This document shows, one piece after another, positions 7,412 to 20,084 of a stretch of DNA of 42,217 bases. The DNA is from a virus (lineage: Duplodnaviria > Heunggongvirae > Uroviricota > Caudoviricetes), in IMG/VR virus record IMGVR_UViG_3300013004_000034; one strand, 5' to 3'. The notes beneath the pieces are model-generated. The model had not been told where the DNA came from. It saw nothing but the letters and a program-made list of their open reading frames with translations, and did not search any database. Each line of letters opens with the position of its first letter. Positions within the stretch are counted from its first letter, which is position 1. The position numbers and the translations under genes are program-made.

Positions 7412-7660
7412 CTATCCGCAAGTTACGTTCGGTGAGCCTTGAATTGCTAAATCACCACCGCTGTCAGCATCACCAACTCTACACACCTTCTTTCCATTGA
7501 CAAACACTGTGGCCGATCCTGTAATCATTAAATCTCCGTCTGTTACTGGAGAATCAACTGTTATAACATTTAGTGAGTTTACAAATACGTCGGTTGTCAA
7601 TGCTTGCATATCTGCCATGGTTACCGATACTTTATCTCCATTTCTACTTACAGCAGGCAT
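7412..7660 (-). CDS. PAAR-like spike tip protein (gp5.4 equivalent)
   Basis: 82 aa with GSATVFVNGKKVCRVGD...GSPNV, located between gp5 and gp25. Confidence 0.85.
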   Translation of the reverse strand: MPAVSRNGDKVSVTMADMQALTTDVFVNSLNVITVDSPVTDGDLMITGSATVFVNGKKVCRVGDADSGGDLAIQGSPNVTCG

Positions 7661-8364
7661 TAGTCATTCAACCTTATCTGGGTACCCTTGACAAATACCT
7701 GCCCGGCAGATGTAATTGTTATAGGACCTGCTGTAGTGGTAATTGTTACACTATCAGTAGCATTGATAGTCATGTTCTTACATGCTACTCTGAAGTCACC
7801 TTCCAAGTTGAACTCTATATTCTTTCCTGTAAGTGACCAATCATCACTCAAGATCTCTGCTTTTGTTCCACCGTAGTTGATGACGGTTTCCCCGCCGATT
7901 GATTCATATTTGTTATTTGTTAAACCTAAGATATAGTCACCGTTTACTGATTCAATTCTGTCTTTCTCGGTATGTACTTGTCTTACACCACCTACACCAT
8001 CTATCAAATCACCACCAACACCTGTAGTCTTGTCTAGAGCTACAGCCTCAAGTGATGACTTATCCACATTGAAACAATATGTACCACCGATCTTTATGTC
8101 AGCATGAGAATCAATTGTCTGAGAGAATGTATCCTTGAAGTAATTGTAGACCTTTTCTACTACAGTATGTACCCAGCGGCCGGTCTTCTCTATTTCTACA
8201 TACGTACCAGTTGTATGAGCAACTTTCAGACTTTCATTATCGGGAGCATCATTGATATGAAACTCATGACCACTTCTAGTGACGGTTGCTTGGTTATATG
8301 GATACTCAGTTGCAAACGTTGATTCTGGGTGTCTACGGTTAGTTGGATCTGTTGTTCCTGACAT
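7660..8364 (-). CDS. gp5: gp5 C-terminal (needle/beta-helix) part, encoded as a separate gene
   Basis: YPYNQATVTRSGHEFHINDAPDNESLKVAHTTGTYVEI followed by short beta-repeat segments. Confidence 0.85.
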   Translation of the reverse strand: MSGTTDPTNRRHPESTFATEYPYNQATVTRSGHEFHINDAPDNESLKVAHTTGTYVEIEKTGRWVHTVVEKVYNYFKDTFSQTIDSHADIKIGGTYCFNVDKSSLEAVALDKTTGVGGDLIDGVGGVRQVHTEKDRIESVNGDYILGLTNNKYESIGGETVINYGGTKAEILSDDWSLTGKNIEFNLEGDFRVACKNMTINATDSVTITTTAGPITITSAGQVFVKGTQIRLND

Positions 8365-8365
8365 A

Positions 8366-9901
8366 TTATAAACTCCTGAACGCGTTTTCCATTTGCGCCC
8401 TTCTCACTGCCAATAGAGATTGGGCTTGTGTAAATCTATCTACTGATCTTTGTATTGCTTGAGTATTAGGAAGCACTGAGATTGATAGTCTAGCATTGAA
8501 CAAACCGGTTACAGAAGAATATATTCTAGGAGCTAGAACTGCAGTTGCAGCAAGGATCTGAAGTGGATTTCCACCTCCAATGACTCGGGTTAGAGCAGAT
8601 ATTTGACCTATACCGGTTGCTCTAACTAAAGTATCTTGTAAACTTGATGTATTCAATCGTCCTGTGGTTATTAATCCATACAGACTGGCTTGAGTTGCTC
8701 TACTTACATCATAGCTACTATGTTGAGTTGCTGATGTGTAGTTAGGTTGGCCGTTCCTAAGAGTAAACACCGGATCTCTAGTACCCGATGCATCTGTCCA
8801 TCTTATATATCCAGGATATGGATCACTATCATATGAGTAATAGTTTTGCGTATAGCCTGCAGGTGCATCGACTACCAACGATATAGGCTTGAACAATACA
8901 GTCGGTGCTCTAGAAAGTATCTCTTGCTTAGCATAACCTAGTCTATTTCTGATTGTTTGTACAGAGTCAGCACCGCGAGAAATAGCAGTCTGGATATTTG
9001 CAACTGATCTTGCAAGAGCCTGTGTACCGGTCGCCATTGAATTCAATGCCGCTGGAGCGGCGCAGATTCCACCGGTCAAGATTGCATCAAGAGCTGCCTT
9101 GAAGTTGGCCAATGCAGCTGCAGCTAAACTGATAGCTCTGAGTACCGCATTGATACCAAGAAGTTCCATAAGATCAAGTAGTACTCTTATAAGAGCGTCT
9201 ACTATCATATTGATAAATCCTGCAGCAATAGATCCCAAGTCGATTGTGAGGCTTATTGTTGTTGCAGCAGGAACAAAACACTTGAGGGACGATATCGTAC
9301 CATTTGGATCTACTTGCTTTATTATGGATAAAACATCTGACTCATTAGCACTTGCTGATGCGGTGGTTGCTGCATTTGCAAACTGCATCCCATTCTCAAC
9401 TTCAGTTGTAATAACAGCACCGGTATTTGCAGTTACAATGTCAATATTAAGTGTGCCTGAATCTATTGAATTGATTGTCAGTCTGTCTGCATTAAGACTT
9501 GTGTAAGCATTAAAAACACTGTTTTGTGTAGCACCAGGAATACTACCTGCAGCTGTATTTATTGCAGGTGCACCACCTTCAGTCTGGCCCGAGATTGGAA
9601 TTCCAGCTCTACCGACCGACCCCATAACAATAGGGTATTGTTGATCACGGTCGAGCCAATATCCCATAACACGAGAACCGACTACAAGTCCTACAGGTGC
9701 GGTACCAATTCGACCTCTAGCGGCAGAAGTAACCGGTTGAATTACTTGTGCCCATGGTAGATCTGAATCTGGTATGTTAACAGTATCATCATGGCGCCCA
9801 AGTACTCGGAGCTGCACCCTACCAGATTGGTGAGGGTCCATCACGTTAGTTACAGTGCCGATCCAGATGCTTACATTAGATCCAAAGTTTGTTTCAGTCA
9901 T
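8366..9901 (-). CDS. gp5: gp5 N-terminal OB-fold protein with a long uncharacterised extension
   Basis: WIGTVTNVMDPHQSGRVQLRVLGRH...LPWAQVIQP...GSRVMGYWLD...YPIVMGS is the gp5/VgrG OB-fold. No lysozyme motif recognised. Confidence 0.85.
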   Translation of the reverse strand: MTETNFGSNVSIWIGTVTNVMDPHQSGRVQLRVLGRHDDTVNIPDSDLPWAQVIQPVTSAARGRIGTAPVGLVVGSRVMGYWLDRDQQYPIVMGSVGRAGIPISGQTEGGAPAINTAAGSIPGATQNSVFNAYTSLNADRLTINSIDSGTLNIDIVTANTGAVITTEVENGMQFANAATTASASANESDVLSIIKQVDPNGTISSLKCFVPAATTISLTIDLGSIAAGFINMIVDALIRVLLDLMELLGINAVLRAISLAAAALANFKAALDAILTGGICAAPAALNSMATGTQALARSVANIQTAISRGADSVQTIRNRLGYAKQEILSRAPTVLFKPISLVVDAPAGYTQNYYSYDSDPYPGYIRWTDASGTRDPVFTLRNGQPNYTSATQHSSYDVSRATQASLYGLITTGRLNTSSLQDTLVRATGIGQISALTRVIGGGNPLQILAATAVLAPRIYSSVTGLFNARLSISVLPNTQAIQRSVDRFTQAQSLLAVRRAQMENAFRSL

Positions 9902-13008: not shown

Positions 13009-13470
13009 ATGGAACCTAAGATGCCGAAGTACAATCAGGGCTTCTTTAAACCAAAGAACCCGACCAAATATAAGGGCGATCCTACAAGTATAGTCTATAG
13101 ATCCGGTTGGGAACTCAGACTAATGTCTCATTTCGACATGCATTCAGATGTAATTTGGTGGTCGTCAGAAGAGAAGATCATCCCCTATAGATCCCCTGCT
13201 GACAACAAAATACACAGATACTTCCCTGACTTTCTTATACATATAAAGACCAAAGAAGGTAAGAACGAAACCGTATTGGTTGAAGTCAAGCCCAAGGCTC
13301 AAACTCAGCCACCGAAGCAGAAAGAAAGAAGCAAGAGGTATTTGACTGAGGTAGTAACTTGGGGAGTCAATCAAGCAAAATGGAAAGCGGCCGAAGAGTT
13401 CTGTAAGGATCGTGGATGGCAATTTAAAATTCTCACAGAAGATCACATCTATGGTCCAAAGAATAAATAA
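13009..13470 (+). CDS. gp4: Head completion nuclease gp4
   Basis: YNQGFFKPKNPTKYKGDPTSIVYRSGWE...WSSEE...HRYFPDF...EVKPKAQT...NQAKWKAA. Confidence 0.95.
   Translation: MEPKMPKYNQGFFKPKNPTKYKGDPTSIVYRSGWELRLMSHFDMHSDVIWWSSEEKIIPYRSPADNKIHRYFPDFLIHIKTKEGKNETVLVEVKPKAQTQPPKQKERSKRYLTEVVTWGVNQAKWKAAEEFCKDRGWQFKILTEDHIYGPKNK
13462..13469 (+). promoter_or_regulatory. Late promoter variant AATAAATA upstream of gp2
   Basis: One mismatch to consensus, ~22 bp before the TTG start. Confidence 0.45.
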
Positions 13471-13491: not shown

Positions 13492-14100
13492 TTGGCTAGC
13501 TATATTTTTCAGAAAATTGCAAAGTTTGGTCGAGCTGACGGTATAGACCAGACAGTTAGGCAAAGAGATGCACGAACTTGGTTTCGTGAAAAAGCAAGTG
13601 CAGTTAGGTCCGTCAACCGCAACCGATTGATGCAAGATCCGGATGCGGATAATCTTGAGACTAAGATTGATCAAGAGTCAATCGGCAACATGTACTCTTT
13701 CTTTTATGACCCAAAGAACAAAAAGACCCTGCCATACTACGATATGTTTCCACTTGTCTTTATAATTGGGCCAAAGCCTGGTGGGTTTTTGGGTATCAAT
13801 CTACATTACTTGCCACCGGTACTTCGAGCAAAGCTCATGGATCAACTTTATGCAATCACCAATAATAAGAAATATGACAATAGTACTAAGTTGATTGTGA
13901 GCTATAAGTTATTGAGTGGTGCTGCTAGGTATCGCTATTTTGAACCTTGTGTGAAGCACTACCTATTTCCACACGTGCAGTCAAAATTTCTTAAGATAGA
14001 ACCTAAATTCTGGGATACCGCATTGATGTTGCCAACAGAGAAGTTTGCCAAGGCAGATACAGATAGGGTATGGAATGACTCAAGGAGCAGAGTAATCTAA
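13492..14100 (+). CDS. gp2: DNA end protector protein gp2 (TTG start)
   Basis: GNMYSFFYDPKNKKTLPYYDMFPLVF...GFLGINLHYLPPVLRAKL...PCVKHYL. Confidence 0.95.
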   Translation: MASYIFQKIAKFGRADGIDQTVRQRDARTWFREKASAVRSVNRNRLMQDPDADNLETKIDQESIGNMYSFFYDPKNKKTLPYYDMFPLVFIIGPKPGGFLGINLHYLPPVLRAKLMDQLYAITNNKKYDNSTKLIVSYKLLSGAARYRYFEPCVKHYLFPHVQSKFLKIEPKFWDTALMLPTEKFAKADTDRVWNDSRSRVI

Positions 14101-14726
14101 TGGCATTCAATATACAAGAATTTGCTAGTAATATAAGTGACCATGGTGTTATTCAAACAAACAAATTTATAGTTACTATTCAAAATCAAAATTTTCCTAA
14201 TAATTTATTTAATGACACACTTGGAGAACAAGCATGGACTTTTAGAAATATATTTGGTATTCTTTTAGATAGAATAGAATCTGTAAAATTACCAGGATTA
14301 CTTATTGATACAGTTGCTTCTGCTAGATATGGTATAGGGCCTAATATTAGTTCAGGAACTAATGTTAGATTTGATCCACTTTCTATTACAATATTATCAG
14401 ATAAAGAAATGAGTATACACAAATTTTTTATTGCTTGGTTCAATTATGTTTTTAATGGAATGAGTGGTAGTAGAGGTAGTTCAACTAGTACCTTTTTGAG
14501 TAATTATAAACAAGAATATGCAACTGATATAACAGTTGAAGTTTATAAGAATATCAGCCAGGCCAGCGCTAGTTATAGATTTTTTGATGCATTCCCTATA
14601 TCAATATCAGAGCCTACTTTAAGTTGGAACTCTAATAATACTTTATATAGATTTGATGTAAATTTTCTTTATACAAATTGGATAGAAGAATTGCAAGATC
14701 GAAATGTAAAGTTAACAAACAGCTAA
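14100..14726 (+). CDS. Tail tube initiator gp54 / gp19-like paralogue
   Basis: NKFIVTI...IESVKLPG...WFNYVF...YKQEYATDITV...AFPISISEPTLSW, a tail-tube fold pattern. Confidence 0.75.
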   Translation: MAFNIQEFASNISDHGVIQTNKFIVTIQNQNFPNNLFNDTLGEQAWTFRNIFGILLDRIESVKLPGLLIDTVASARYGIGPNISSGTNVRFDPLSITILSDKEMSIHKFFIAWFNYVFNGMSGSRGSSTSTFLSNYKQEYATDITVEVYKNISQASASYRFFDAFPISISEPTLSWNSNNTLYRFDVNFLYTNWIEELQDRNVKLTNS

Positions 14727-14747
14727 ATTTAATGGAGTGAATATATT

Positions 14748-15458
14748 ATGCCGCTACCTAAAGTAAAGCATCCTATTTTTGAGTTTACAGTACCATCTAC
14801 AGGAAAGAAAGAATCTTTTAGGCCGTTCCTTGTTAGAGAAGAAAAGATACTTCTTATGGGAAAGGCATCGGAAGATCCTGCTGATTCTTTGAGGGCTGTA
14901 AAGCAAGTTGTTAACAACTGCTATCTTGGTGGTGGGCTTGATATTGATAAGCTTTCCATCTTTGATCTTGAGTATTTGTTCTTGCAGATTAGGGCTGTGT
15001 CCGTAAGTGACATTGTTACAGTCTCCTATAGAGACAATGAAGATCAACAGGTTTATAACTTTGATATCAACCTAAAAGAAATAAAGGTAAAGTTCCCCGA
15101 CAAGATTGATCCAGTTATTAAAATAACTGATACTCTTTGCCTAGTGATGAGATGGCCAAGTGCATCTGTTTTGGATGATAAGACGTACTTTAAGGTAAGT
15201 GAGGATTCTTACTATGAACTAATCCTCCGATGCTTGGACAAGATCTATGATGGAGATGAAATTTATGATCCTTCAGAGTATACACTCAAAGAGTTAGAAG
15301 AATTTTTGGATGACTGTGGCATATCCGTGCTAGAAAAGATCCAAGACTTCATGGCGCAGACTCCAAGACTTTATCATAAGCTCACATATACAAATAAGAA
15401 CGGCAAGGAAAGAGTGATTGAACTCACCAGCCTAACTGATTTTTTTACATTGCGCTGA
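14748..15458 (+). CDS. gp26: Baseplate hub assembly protein gp26
   Basis: MPLPKVKHPIFEFTVPSTGKKESFRPFLVREEKILL...FDLEYLFLQIRAVSV...SLTDFF. Confidence 0.93.
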   Translation: MPLPKVKHPIFEFTVPSTGKKESFRPFLVREEKILLMGKASEDPADSLRAVKQVVNNCYLGGGLDIDKLSIFDLEYLFLQIRAVSVSDIVTVSYRDNEDQQVYNFDINLKEIKVKFPDKIDPVIKITDTLCLVMRWPSASVLDDKTYFKVSEDSYYELILRCLDKIYDGDEIYDPSEYTLKELEEFLDDCGISVLEKIQDFMAQTPRLYHKLTYTNKNGKERVIELTSLTDFFTLR

Positions 15459-15622
15459 GTCATAATACGCTAGAGAACTACTATCTTACTCTCTTTGCAC
15501 TGATTCAGCACCACAAGTACTCTATCAAAGAAGTAGAGGGACTTATACCATTTGAACGCGATATCTTTGTCCAGATGCTTCTGAGATTTTTAGAAGAGTT
15601 AAAGGAACAAAGAGAGCGGTAA
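15440..15622 (+). CDS. gp51: gp51-like hub assembly protein with no ATG/GTG/TTG start; probably reached by -1 frameshift from gp26, or by a CTG start at 15455
   Basis: Not in the ORF track. Frame after TGA 15437-15439 reads FFYIALSHNTLENYYLTLFALIQHHKYSIKEVEGLIPFERDIFVQMLLRFLEELKEQRER*, containing the NYY..FALIQHHKYS..E..IPFERDI motif of short gp51 proteins. Confidence 0.85.
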   Translation, partial: FFYIALSHNTLENYYLTLFALIQHHKYSIKEVEGLIPFERDIFVQMLLRFLEELKEQRER

Positions 15623-15931
15623 ATGGCGGTTGATGATAAGACACCTAAAAAGTCTGATGATGAAAATTGGATCAGATCATATTGGAGACCTGCCATGGGC
15701 TGGCTCTATATGCTTATCTGCTTCATGGACTTTGTATTCTTTCCTTTGCTAGCAATGTTTATTCCGGCAATATTAAAGAATCTAGGTGTAGTTGATGGTG
15801 CATATGCACCATGGGTCAGTTTGACACTTTCAAATGGTGGAATGATACATATGGCTTTTGGCGCCATCCTTGGTGTAACTGCTTGGACTAGAGGCATGGA
15901 AAAAATCCGCGCCGCTGATAGGAGAGACTAA
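15623..15931 (+). CDS. Holin-like membrane protein (GTA 3TM holin-like)
   Basis: WRPAMGWLY motif, hydrophobic segments, C-terminal GAILGVTAWTRGMEK. Confidence 0.7.
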   Translation: MAVDDKTPKKSDDENWIRSYWRPAMGWLYMLICFMDFVFFPLLAMFIPAILKNLGVVDGAYAPWVSLTLSNGGMIHMAFGAILGVTAWTRGMEKIRAADRRD

Positions 15932-18141
15932 TGGCTGCATTACCAAGAGCAACTGAGTATTCAAGAGCAGAAAGTACTAGGGCTGCAGCTAGGCAAAAGC
16001 CAGATCGTAATACTGATGATCTTCTCAATAAGATTATGTCCATTGGGACAGAAACCGATCCTCTAACTAGTTACATTAAACTTCAAACTGAGAAGTCTGA
16101 GTTTAAGCAACAAGAAATTGCAGATAAAATAGACTCATCATTGAACAGCTCTACTGGTTTGGCGATGGAGCAGAATCAACTACTACGCCAGATTATTGAT
16201 GAAATAAAGAAACTAAAACCATCAAGTACAAGCGGTGGTGGTAATGGTCGTAATAGACCCGGTAATAGAGGTAGATATGGTGCTAAGGGTAGAGAAAGAC
16301 TTGAAAGAAGACAAGCAGCTAAACAAACCGCCACAAGGCCACCATCTCAACCTACAATAACAACAGAAGCTAGACCTGCTCAAACGGTAGCAAGACCAGG
16401 AGTTACTTCTGGCGTCGGAAGAGCTGTTGGAACTAGTGCAGTATTAGGTGCTGCTATTGGCCAAGCTACTGGTCAAGACGCATTACAAGCCGGTGCACAA
16501 GCGGCACAGTCAGCAGTTGCTACAGTTGTAATAAGTCAAGCAGCAGAACAAACTATTAAGGAAGTTGCATCTAGATTTATAGGCAGAACCGTATTATCAA
16601 AGATACCTCTTGCAGGTCTTCTTGCTAGTCTGTGGTTTGCTAAAAAAAGAGTTGATAACGGAGATTGGGTTGGAGCTGGACTTGAAGTCTCTTCTGGTGC
16701 TGCCGGCACTTTAGGTGCTGTAACATTTGGTCTAGGTACTGCAACGTCGGTAGCAATAGATACAGCCCAGCTTACAAGAGATGTATATAAAGCTCTTTAT
16801 GGAAAGTTCCCAGAAGAAGAGGAAAATGAGCAAGTTAGAAATGCTAATCTAGCAGCTATAGGGCCTGCAATTACCAGAGCTTTAAATGAGCTTATCAATA
16901 GAGCGCCCAGACCAATACCTCCACAAATTAATGACGAAACTAGAGCTAGATTGCTTGAAATTTATAACCTAGCAACGGAAAGTGAGGAAGCAAATAGTAT
17001 CATAGGTGAAGATACTAGAGCAGGTATTGGCCAATTCTTGCGGTCAAATTTGTCATCTGGTAGTGGTAAACAAGCAGAAAGAGCTAGACAAGCAATTGCC
17101 AGTATTATGGCAAGACTCGAGCCATTGGTAACGTCAAGATCTTCATCAAGTAGAGTCTCAACCTCACAGTCAAATATGGAACCTAGTAGTTTAGCAACAC
17201 CATCCGGAAGTCAAACAACAGTAGCTCCAGCTCCGATGACACCTAGAGGATCAATTACTGGTAGCAGAACTTTTGCAAACTTAAGTGCTTATACGTCAAG
17301 TACACAAAGTAAAGCGGACCCTGCGAGTCAACAAACACCGGCAACAGGTTCTCGTATCACAGGATCCTCAGGTAGAATTATGGCAGGAACTGCGGCTGCT
17401 AGTTCAAGTCCATCAGTAACTACACCAGTGGCACGGCCAGCGGCTACAACTACAGGAGGATCAACTGTAACTGGAAGCTCACAACAAAATGCAGGAGTTA
17501 CAGGTGATTTTGCCACAGAGCTCAATAGAGTCTCTAGCAAGTTCAATATCAATCCTGCTGATTTGCTAGCAGTTATGAGATCTGAGTCAGGTCTGAATCC
17601 TCAGGCGGTCAATCGTGATCCTCGCACTGGCCGTGGCACCGGTGCCACGGGTCTAATTCAGTTTATGCCTGCCACTGCTAGATCTTTAGGCACTACGGTG
17701 GAAGAACTGCGGGGAATGACTGCAGCTCAACAGATGCAGTATGTAGAGAAATACTTTGATAGTGTCAGACTCCCTTCTGGTTCCAGTGCTGGTAGACTTT
17801 ATGCATACGTATTCCTCCCAGGTAGAGCCAATAGAGAAGTTCTGACTTCACAAGGTGAAGCATATTATGATGCCAACAGAGGTCTTGACATGGACAGAGA
17901 CGGTAATATAACCATTACGGACCTGGATGTTAGAATGGCCAGATACGGAGCATCTTTGTCTAGTGCTAGTTCTGGTATGGCAGCTGCTGATCAAGCACAA
18001 TTAATAGGTACGGGACAACGACCAGTTGTTTTACCTGCAGGTGGAAGTGGTGCTGCCGCATCATCAACCGGTAATGCAATAAGAGCTAATCCAACAGGTG
18101 AAGTTCCATTAAATAGAAGACTAGAAAAGCAGGTGGCGTGA
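15931..18141 (+). CDS. Tape-measure/gp29-like virion protein with a C-terminal lytic transglycosylase (SLT)
   Basis: SKIPLAGLL..FAKKRVDNGDWVGAGLE segment; LLAVMRSESGLNPQA...ATGLIQFMPATARSLG SLT motifs; DMDRDGNIT EF-hand-like loop. Confidence 0.8.
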   Translation: MAALPRATEYSRAESTRAAARQKPDRNTDDLLNKIMSIGTETDPLTSYIKLQTEKSEFKQQEIADKIDSSLNSSTGLAMEQNQLLRQIIDEIKKLKPSSTSGGGNGRNRPGNRGRYGAKGRERLERRQAAKQTATRPPSQPTITTEARPAQTVARPGVTSGVGRAVGTSAVLGAAIGQATGQDALQAGAQAAQSAVATVVISQAAEQTIKEVASRFIGRTVLSKIPLAGLLASLWFAKKRVDNGDWVGAGLEVSSGAAGTLGAVTFGLGTATSVAIDTAQLTRDVYKALYGKFPEEEENEQVRNANLAAIGPAITRALNELINRAPRPIPPQINDETRARLLEIYNLATESEEANSIIGEDTRAGIGQFLRSNLSSGSGKQAERARQAIASIMARLEPLVTSRSSSSRVSTSQSNMEPSSLATPSGSQTTVAPAPMTPRGSITGSRTFANLSAYTSSTQSKADPASQQTPATGSRITGSSGRIMAGTAAASSSPSVTTPVARPAATTTGGSTVTGSSQQNAGVTGDFATELNRVSSKFNINPADLLAVMRSESGLNPQAVNRDPRTGRGTGATGLIQFMPATARSLGTTVEELRGMTAAQQMQYVEKYFDSVRLPSGSSAGRLYAYVFLPGRANREVLTSQGEAYYDANRGLDMDRDGNITITDLDVRMARYGASLSSASSGMAAADQAQLIGTGQRPVVLPAGGSGAAASSTGNAIRANPTGEVPLNRRLEKQVA

Positions 18142-20084
18142 TGTCTGGCTACTTAAAAAAGATGCTAAAGAAAAATAAAAAGCCGGCATTGGCTGATCAG
18201 CCTAAACCAGAAAGCAAGCAAAATTCCTCGAGATCTATATTTTCTAAGAAAGGCGATGAGATCTTCAGGAATACTTTTCCTATATTGTCAATTATAGTTG
18301 ATAAGCTTGAGTCAAATGAGAAAGATGACTCGGTTGATAGAACTCGACAGAGTATTGCCAGAGAGAATTCCATCCGCAAATCGGATGCAATAGCTATTAA
18401 TTTAGCAAGTTTAACAATCGAGCAAGGAAAAATAGTAACTCTACTTAAAGAACTACTCGATGTTGTTAAAGACTTAAATTCGGGCAAAGATGCTAAGCCA
18501 ACTGGTAATAGCGGTCTAAATGGGGGATTAGGTGGGCTAGGATCTAAGTTAGCAGCTGGTGCAGCAGCGGCCACCTTAGGGGGAGCTCTTTATAATACAC
18601 AGAATAATGAAGCTAATAGAAGAGATCAACCTGCAGGATCTACTAATCCCCAGCAAGGTAATGCACCAGCAACAAATCAACCCGCAGTCACTAGAGAAAC
18701 TCAAGAAAGAACTGTTGCTAATTTTAGTCTTGCTAGATTTAGAGAAAATGATCCTGAAGGTGCAAGAGAATATGAAGCTAAGCTGCGTGATAGAAGAAAA
18801 GAACTAATTGATGAGTCAATTAGAAGAACTCCTGCATATCAATCTGGTAGTCCAGCCACAAGATCTCTTTATATGCAAGGATTTGAATCAAGTGCAGAAT
18901 CAAGAGCAATGGCTGAGTTACTACCTCAATATGCTGAGAGAATTACAGCAGCTAGAGCAGGAACTATTCAACATGTTCAGACACCTAGCGCTTCACCATT
19001 ATCAACCGCACCAGCAGTTTCACTCCCCTCAGTACCAGCCGAACAAAATACTACACAGACACCGAGAATAAGCTCAGGGACACAACCTAGAATAACCAGA
19101 CCACCGGCAGCTACTGAGCAACCGGTACCAGAAAGCGCAACTCGGATTAGATCAAATGATCGCTTTGTTGGTTATATGCCTACCGTAACATCTACAGATA
19201 GTGCTAGAGCTCAAGTTACAAGATCTAGTCAGGCTAGACCGGTCTCTACACAAGCATCTCCCTCTCCTGATGCGCCCGGGCTTAATCCTTTAGCTACTCT
19301 TGCATCAATGCCTGCACCAGCAGGAGCCGCTTCATCTACAAGATTACTTACACCAACATCAGGAAGAATAACATCACCGTTTGGCATGCGTTCTATGGGT
19401 AATCACGAAGGTATTGATTATGGGGTTCCTGTTGGTACTCCGATCGTTGCAGCACATGGTGGAACAGTTGTTGAAGTGCGCGAGTCCTCTTCATACGGAA
19501 ATATGATCCGTATCCGCGGAGATAATGGCACTGATACGTTATACGCGCATCTATCTTCATTTGGAGTACAGGAAGGTCAACAAGTCACAGCTGGTCAACA
19601 GATAGCGCTATCGGGCAATACCGGTAGATCCACAGGTCCTCATTTACACTTTGAAGCAATACGTAATGGTACCAAGATTGATCCCGCCCCACTGCTTGGT
19701 TTATCTGGATCACAATCTACACAATCTGCACAAAGCCAAACACCAGAACCTGCCCCATCATCATCTGATGCATCACCCATATCATCTACTCCTGCTACTG
19801 CGGCTGCAAGCATTGCTTCACCAGCCGAACAATCTGCCGCATCTACTCCTGCTGCTTCTGCACCTACAACCGGTGCAGCTGTGGTTAATGCATCACAAGC
19901 AAATGCAGTAGCTGAAAGAATACCTGCTCCAGCTACTGCAATATATTCTGAATCTGCACCTGCAGGCCAAGCATCCGCCGGTGCATCAGTACCAGGTACA
20001 TTTAGTAGTCCTACCGAACCTGGAAATGTAGAACCTGTAGATTCAGCGGAACGATATGCCAGACTTTTCAATATGGCAGCTTAA
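18138..20084 (+). CDS. Tape-measure-like virion protein with an M23 peptidase domain
   Basis: ITSPFGMR...HEGIDYG...YAHL...GNTGRSTGPHLHFE (HxxxD and HxH), flanked by A/S/P/T-rich linkers. Confidence 0.85.
   Translation: MMSGYLKKMLKKNKKPALADQPKPESKQNSSRSIFSKKGDEIFRNTFPILSIIVDKLESNEKDDSVDRTRQSIARENSIRKSDAIAINLASLTIEQGKIVTLLKELLDVVKDLNSGKDAKPTGNSGLNGGLGGLGSKLAAGAAAATLGGALYNTQNNEANRRDQPAGSTNPQQGNAPATNQPAVTRETQERTVANFSLARFRENDPEGAREYEAKLRDRRKELIDESIRRTPAYQSGSPATRSLYMQGFESSAESRAMAELLPQYAERITAARAGTIQHVQTPSASPLSTAPAVSLPSVPAEQNTTQTPRISSGTQPRITRPPAATEQPVPESATRIRSNDRFVGYMPTVTSTDSARAQVTRSSQARPVSTQASPSPDAPGLNPLATLASMPAPAGAASSTRLLTPTSGRITSPFGMRSMGNHEGIDYGVPVGTPIVAAHGGTVVEVRESSSYGNMIRIRGDNGTDTLYAHLSSFGVQEGQQVTAGQQIALSGNTGRSTGPHLHFEAIRNGTKIDPAPLLGLSGSQSTQSAQSQTPEPAPSSSDASPISSTPATAAASIASPAEQSAASTPAASAPTTGAAVVNASQANAVAERIPAPATAIYSESAPAGQASAGASVPGTFSSPTEPGNVEPVDSAERYARLFNMAA

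Follow-up and report, generated by a model that had tools for sequence, protein, structure and literature searches.

The gp26 gene of a T4-like myophage known from lake-water metagenomes very probably yields two proteins of different length: At a conserved stretch of seven U's close to its 3' end, a fraction of the translating ribosomes would slip back by a single base. We consider this programmed −1 ribosomal frameshift highly likely to be real, judging from comparisons of the locus in the window (the whole stretch of 42,217 nucleotides analysed here) with its relatives. This reading builds on the anatomy of the sequence, its conservation, the homology of the products to gp26 and gp51 of T4 and a suggestive likeness of the predicted fold to chaperones, all of which are observed; what we infer are the occurrence and efficiency of the slip, the role of a downstream stem and the binding partners of each part. 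Most ribosomes would read through to the TGA at 15456 and release a gp26 of 236 amino acids. A minority would slip at U UUU UUU (15440-15446), where the tRNA-Phe in the P-site and that in the A-site can re-pair one base back, and would then continue in the −1 frame to 15622, giving a protein of 291 amino acids that consists of gp26 plus a helical, gp51-like tail of 57 residues. The nearby stop codon of frame 0 and a stem that begins 7 nt downstream of the heptamer probably raise the rate of slippage. The short and the long product would be the counterparts of T4 gp26 and gp51, which are baseplate-hub assembly chaperones, and would form a tail assembly chaperone pair of the G/GT type, with the frequency of slipping determining the proportion of the two.

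The gp26 gene (14748-15458, plus strand) has several phage genes around it on the same strand. It is preceded by genes for the head completion protein gp4 (13009-13470), the DNA end protector gp2 (13492-14100) and, as its direct upstream neighbour, a gp54-like baseplate tail-tube initiator (14100-14726), which falls into phrog_45 as T4 gp54 does. Farther upstream, the minus strand carries the baseplate genes gp48, gp53, gp5-like, gp25, gp6 and gp7-like. Two observations on these neighbours may be recorded here: The gp4 protein matches the TnsA-like endonuclease N-terminal domain of Pfam (PF08722, E 3e-24), and the gp5-like hub/tail-lysozyme protein is encoded by two adjacent open reading frames on the minus strand, 7660-8364 and 8366-9901, which lie one base apart. 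The longer product of this pair (511 residues) aligns with positions 13-108 of phrog_430, in its N-terminal part, and the shorter one (234 residues) with positions 325-535. The split may be natural or may mark a further site of recoding. Membership of gp26 itself in its family is clear, with matches to PF12322 (T4_baseplate; E 6e-53) and phrog_150 (E 5e-57); the PF12322 match scores 180 bits against a curated cut-off of 24.5, covers profile positions 2-218 of 219 and is also obtained with each half of the protein alone.

At its 3' end, the gp26 frame reads GAT (15438-15440) TTT TTT ACA TTG CGC TGA (15456-15458), and the heptamer T TTT TTT at 15440-15446 is of the type X XXY YYZ and in register with this frame, as a tandem −1 slip by two tRNA-Phe would demand. 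A TGA at 15437-15439 closes the −1 frame immediately before the slippery site. From 15440, that frame is open to the TAA at 15620-15622 (60 residues, with a translation beginning FFYIALSHNTLENYY), and it overlaps gp26 by 19 nt only, with the heptamer occupying the start of the overlap. The tail matches phrog_634, the gp51 "hub assembly catalyst" family, with an E-value of 1e-21. Its only canonical start codon of any kind (ATG, GTG or TTG) is an ATG at codon 45/46 that would leave 15 residues, and in the window the 22 nt upstream hold no Shine-Dalgarno-like motif. A conceptual slip joins frame 0 (14748-15446) to the −1 frame (15446-15619) in a fusion of 291 residues (14748-15622 with its stop codon) with the junction ...SLTDFFYIALSH.... 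A preliminary description of this DNA, made from the sequence alone, had proposed the frameshift, and its account of the gp26 end, the heptamer, the opening of the −1 frame after the TGA, the gp51-like peptide without start or ribosome-binding site and a fusion of about 290 residues agrees with sequence, reading frames and translations base for base. The match of the tail to phrog_634 is confined to positions 56-112 of 121, while that of T4 gp51 covers positions 2-103, so the −1 frame of the window encodes only the tail of a gp51. It is no self-standing gp51 gene with its own start, as T4 has.

Downstream of the tail follow a 102-residue protein with three predicted transmembrane segments, whose start lies directly after the tail stop (15623-15931; phrog_3427), a 736-residue protein (15931-18141) and a 648-residue M23 peptidase protein (18138-20084), all on the plus strand. 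The small protein matches PF11351 (GTA_holin_3TM) with 24.6 bits, just below the cut-off of 24.8. An open reading frame of 90-148 amino acids occupies the same position in phages Melnitz, Mosig, DLP_6, phiN3 and AF3, within a block of baseplate-hub genes. The 736-residue protein has an SLT domain (PF01464, E 5e-11; phrog_196) and an Ala/Gly-rich hydrophobic region, and it may be a tape measure or a hub protein; these features make it tape-measure-like, and it has no match to phrog_1283, the family of T4 gp29. In the order of chaperone, frameshifted extension and tape measure that had been described beforehand, the three-transmembrane reading frame has to be inserted before the last gene, and the tape measure is a putative one by its features. 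A predicted complex of gp26 with residues 1-380 of the 736-residue protein scored 0.26 against a mark of 0.32, in a prediction run without controls, which counts neither for nor against binding.

Homopolymers are prone to sequencing error and the window is metagenomic, so one might suspect that a missing or extra T has split a naturally fused gene or, failing this, that the tail is the remnant of a dead gp51. Contigs from three separate lake-water runs, one of which may be the source sample, span 15300-15700 with 0 differences and 0 gaps, and since they are identical over this stretch without any indel, the frame offset is not an assembly error. The same offset is moreover found in all of the 91 loci described below, finished genomes of cultured phages included, and the tail is under purifying selection, which speaks against a dead remnant. 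A sequencing artefact is excluded on these grounds, and artefact and decay taken together are effectively refuted as explanations.

Relatives of the locus can be reached at the protein level only, as a blastn search of 14100-15931 against the phage collection returned no match. A tblastn search with the tail found 546-564 phage records, mostly of Kyanoviridae but also of phages of Vibrio, Rhizobium, Sinorhizobium, Pseudomonas, Stenotrophomonas, Pelagibacter and Methylophilales. For comparison, we assembled 91 loci (the window, 10 annotated genomes and 80 loci of IMG/VR), among them those of cultured phages with Synechococcus, Pelagibacter, Methylophilales, Stenotrophomonas, Sinorhizobium, Vibrio, Rhizobium, Pseudomonas and Paraglaciecola as hosts, and chose 33 representatives with a tail identity under 80%. 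Separately from this set, a second contig that belongs to a different phage and occurs in two lake-water runs matches the window at 15433-15468 only (36 bases with 3 differences), with unrelated flanks; since the match is limited to just these bases, the junction stands out as an isolated stretch conserved at the nucleotide level in relatives that occur together.

All 91 loci have a heptamer in phase with the gp26 frame within the last codons of the gene, mostly as TTTTTTT (76 loci), otherwise as TTTTTTC (14) or, in Rhizobium phage AF3, as TTTTTTG (1), and this invariance argues that the heptamer is not there by chance. Behind it, the −1 frame of every locus encodes the motif FF-[YRL]-[IVA]-x-L-x-H, again without a conserved start codon, so that the residues upstream of the His, whose conservation had been proposed as a test, are indeed maintained. 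In 48 of the 91 loci a stop codon closes the −1 frame directly before the heptamer, and the frame-0 stop follows 0-3 codons past it in 32 of the 33 representatives. The variation per codon position over the first 14 codons of the −1 frame (entropies of 0.74, 0.69 and 1.30 bits for the first, second and third position) has the third-position periodicity of coding sequence, and this begins at the heptamer; purifying selection acts on the tail.

Conservation of the T-run at the nucleotide level, proposed as a test as well, is likewise borne out. The first Phe codon is TTT in 33 of 33 representatives compared to 59% TTT in the same genes, and the codon before the two Phe codons, though it varies between GAT, AGT, AAT, ACT and CAT (for D, S, N, T and H), ends in T in 33 of 33 compared to 58-70% NNT codons in the same genes. 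Such fixation of synonymous T's would have probabilities of about 1e-6 and 2e-8 if the 33 sequences were independent, which they are not fully, and their relatedness weakens these figures but not their direction. Part of the T-run is driven by the protein, since Phe-Phe is also a conserved motif at the C-terminus of gp26.

The tail could also be made as a free peptide of about 55 amino acids without fusion to gp26, either by non-canonical or coupled initiation at CTG 15455 or ATT 15449 or by termination and reinitiation. Some features point this way: CTG 15455 overlaps the gp26 stop as CTGA in the window, and in phages DLP_6, phiN3, ValKK3, AF3 and GD1 an ATG lies 3-5 codons past the heptamer, which annotators have used as a start and which makes a free tail peptide possible in these distant lineages. 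However, neither of the two proposed start codons, which the preliminary description had named as the real alternative, is conserved among the 33 representatives. At the CTG position there are 19 CTG, 8 CTC, 3 CTT and 3 ATG codons, and at the ATT position there are 8 ATT and 12 ATA codons besides nine other codons (GCT and GTT among them). Free use of TTC codons together with a conserved ATG in place of the CTG, which would have counted against the frameshift, is therefore not what the representatives present. The first canonical start is found anywhere from codon 3 to codon 54 and would leave only the 15 residues mentioned above in the window, where the stretch of 22 nt upstream also offers no Shine-Dalgarno-like motif. 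In addition, the residues ahead of the CTG and ATT codons are conserved and have coding periodicity. Initiation within the tail would finally leave unexplained both the fixed synonymous T's and the in-frame fusion of the T4 tail to a gp26-like domain (see below), and we regard a free peptide as a very unlikely product of this locus.

Slippage of the RNA polymerase would be another route to the same fusion, as the addition of one U to the run of seven would bring the tail in frame and yield an identical protein from the homopolymers of 7 T present in 76 of the 91 loci. The remaining 15 loci, however, have six T's only, followed by C or G, and still form a proper X XXY YYZ heptamer. Productive transcriptional slippage in bacteria usually needs runs of about 8-9 or more. 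It is also the register of the heptamer with the reading frame that is kept in 91 of 91 loci, and this register matters to ribosomes but not to a polymerase. Because of this register and the loci with six T's only, a slip of the ribosome is favoured over one of the polymerase, which we consider just as improbable as a free tail peptide, if not slightly more so.

Ribosomal frameshifting in the window could be stimulated by an RNA structure. The predicted fold of the RNA at 15440-15540 (minimum free energy −21.6 kcal/mol, z −2.0) contains a 9-bp stem that begins 7 nt past the heptamer, with its 5' arm at 15454-15462 including the frame-0 stop and its 3' arm at 15501-15509. Across 48 distinct relatives, 79% of the cells of the alignment pair at the stem compared to 26-43% in slid controls, three pairs show double changes, and the covariation score is reached by 0 of 500 shuffles. 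Within the clade of the window, 90% of the cells pair but the covariation is only marginal, at 0.146 as compared to 0.120 for shuffles, of which 26 of 500 score as high. Pairs 20-65 and 21-64 vary as GU/GC/AU and UA/UG/CG. Codon choice points in the same direction for the 3' arm, which is single-coding: Gln is CAG in 28 of 30 cases (background 40%) and Leu codons end in G in 21 of 25 (background 30%). The codon bias of the 5' arm is confounded, as this arm is dual-coding. Taken as moderate support, these comparisons make the downstream stem a probable stimulator, not an established one.

A Shine-Dalgarno-like stimulator ahead of the heptamer is absent in the window. Other lineages, which have no long-range stem, show either a local hairpin or, at a distance of 13-14 nt on the 5' side of the heptamer, the motif GAGG/AAGG. 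More broadly, GAGG, AAGG or GGAG, stemming from a conserved Gly codon, lies about 13-14 nt before the heptamer in many lineages outside the clade of the window, which itself lacks the motif. The upstream motif and the downstream stem may thus be alternative stimulators.

Comparison with T4 indicates what the two products could do. T4 gp51 (249 residues) matches PF12322 over residues 1-201 (E 4e-52) and phrog_634 positions 2-103 over residues 147-246, while T4 gp26 (208 residues) matches PF12322 only. The preliminary description had noted that genes 26 and 51 of T4 are separate; they are indeed two genes, but gp51 is a full gp26-like domain plus tail and hence equivalent to an in-frame fusion. 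When conceptual fusions from eleven phages were aligned by MAFFT together with both T4 proteins, T4 gp51 was colinear through the junction, where it lies against ...TSLTDFFYIALSHNTLENYYL..., and T4 gp26 stopped at the junction (...GLKEFFELL), ending in the same FF motif as the short form. An hhalign comparison of the tail alignment with the C-terminus of T4 gp51 gave an E-value of 1e-4. Direct BLASTP of T4 gp51 against gp26 and the tail of the window remained at noise level (E 0.09 and 0.008), and with so little pairwise identity to T4, it is the profiles of Pfam and PHROG, the hhalign comparison and the multiple alignment that carry the homology. T4 gp26 would accordingly correspond to the short form and T4 gp51 to the long form of the same family.

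The two systems differ in how the long form is obtained. In T4, the two forms come from a pair of paralogous genes with divergent transcription, and the slippery run is missing, whereas the phage of the window would have one gene and would need to recode it for the long form. The Phe-Phe codons of T4 gp26 are TTC TTT and the equivalent codons of T4 gp51 are GTG TTT, so that the T-run is missing exactly where no slip is needed. Gene counts in complete genomes of relatives fit this division, with one PF12322 gene each in S-RSM4, Melnitz-3, Mosig and ValKK3 and two in T4; in such one-gene phages, recoding would be the only route to a PF12322 domain with the tail. T4 gp26 and gp51 have been described as hub assembly chaperones, and gp51 as an essential protein that has no known function and is not found in the particle (Leiman et al. 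2010, PMC3004832).

The structure predicted for gp26 may be in keeping with such a role. An AF2 model of the protein (pLDDT 87, pTM 0.82) was compared over residues 1-95 with 48,161 PDB representatives using VIA-align, and the best three matches were 3fgx (Z 8.2), the tail assembly chaperone of HK97 (2ob9, Z 7.3) and YqbN of B. subtilis (3klu, Z 6.8), with 81-86 residues aligned at an rmsd of about 4 A. Scores in this range (Z about 7-8) may arise from an arrangement that many proteins have in common. YqbN belongs to a PBSX-like prophage, in which it is the chaperone of XkdN type. The match ranked fourth had a Z of 4.6, and the chaperone ORF12 of lactococcal phage p2 a Z of 3.1. Foldseek found no match of the gp26 model in the PDB at E ≤ 0.001, a profile search of PDB sequences returned only two chance-level matches (mRNA capping enzymes), and no chaperone family of Pfam was matched by either half of gp26 at E ≤ 10. 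Among AFDB clusters, there were PF12322-like "baseplate protein" folds and one weak match to a "phage tail assembly protein" (E 0.17). The likeness of the N-terminal domain of gp26 to tail assembly chaperones is hence suggestive but not proof. Separately, residues 88-230 of the model show a weak likeness to the peptide-binding C-terminal domains of Hsp40/DnaJ (Z 3.3-3.9 over about 47 residues), too weak to interpret. For the tail, AF2 predicted a small domain of helices (pLDDT 75).

That long-tailed phages have a programmed −1 frameshift in their tail chaperone genes is textbook knowledge. The gpG/gpGT pair of lambda and the conservation of its −1 frameshift among tail chaperones were reportedly described by Levin in 1993 and by Xu, Hendrix and Duda in 2004. 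The locus of the window has the layout of this type, with two overlapping reading frames, the second of which is in the −1 frame and has no start of its own, and an in-register X XXY YYZ heptamer within the overlap that is conserved among relatives. As in lambda, the chaperone gene has a tube-type gene on one side and a large, putatively tape-measure-like gene on the other, and the slip would occur towards its 3' end, giving short and long forms with a common N-terminus, whose predicted fold may be chaperone-like. Unlike here, the lambda heptamer is G GGA AAG, and the two systems have no sequence family in common; gp26 is also larger than other chaperones, with a second domain that these lack, and its family acts at hub assembly in T4. 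We consider the putative assignment to the G/GT type well supported by the homology of the products to their T4 counterparts, gp26 and gp51, while the predicted fold gives it moderate support.

The nearest mechanistic precedent in a myovirus is the E/E+E' pair of phage P2, in which a −1 slip at TTTTTTG adds an extension of about 50 amino acids (PMC3091744). Like the phage of the window, P2 has a contractile tail and a T-run heptamer, and its TTTTTTG variant also occurs within the gp26 family, in Rhizobium phage AF3. E is different in that it has 91 residues and lies outside PF12322, and P2 has no downstream structure (PMC3091744), while the window has a candidate stem.

A 2016 review described the G-T frameshift as a conserved trait of the long-tailed phages "except T4" (Atkins et al., PMC5009743). 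Our full-text literature search found no paper describing a gp26/gp51 frameshift, as presumed in the preliminary description, which knew of no account of it in this phage group. None of the 12 GenBank/RefSeq records of relatives that we inspected has a joined coding sequence; instead, gp51 is called from an internal ATG (44-47 amino acids) or the stretch is left unannotated. In the records of ACG-2014j, S-CAM8 and many other cyanophages, about 185 bp between gp26 and the next gene are without annotation, exactly at the tail. The annotations of hundreds of cyanophage and marine phage genomes need correcting in this respect.

It seems likely that the ancestral state of gp26/gp51 is a single gene on which ribosomes slip to −1 at U UUU UUY, kept in Kyanoviridae-like and many other T4-like lineages, and that the T4 lineage duplicated this gene and fused the tail in frame. 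The T4-like phages would then be no exception to the rule, and gp26 and gp51, which have counted as "essential proteins of unknown function" ever since the 1970s, would be the G and GT of T4. The locus described here and its 90 relatives suggest that the T4 superfamily uses the −1 frameshift device as well, in a protein family that had so far not been counted among the tail assembly chaperones. Gp26 and gp51 of T4 itself would represent this pair in uncoupled form, and nature would here have carried out an experiment by putting two genes in the place of a fixed slip ratio.
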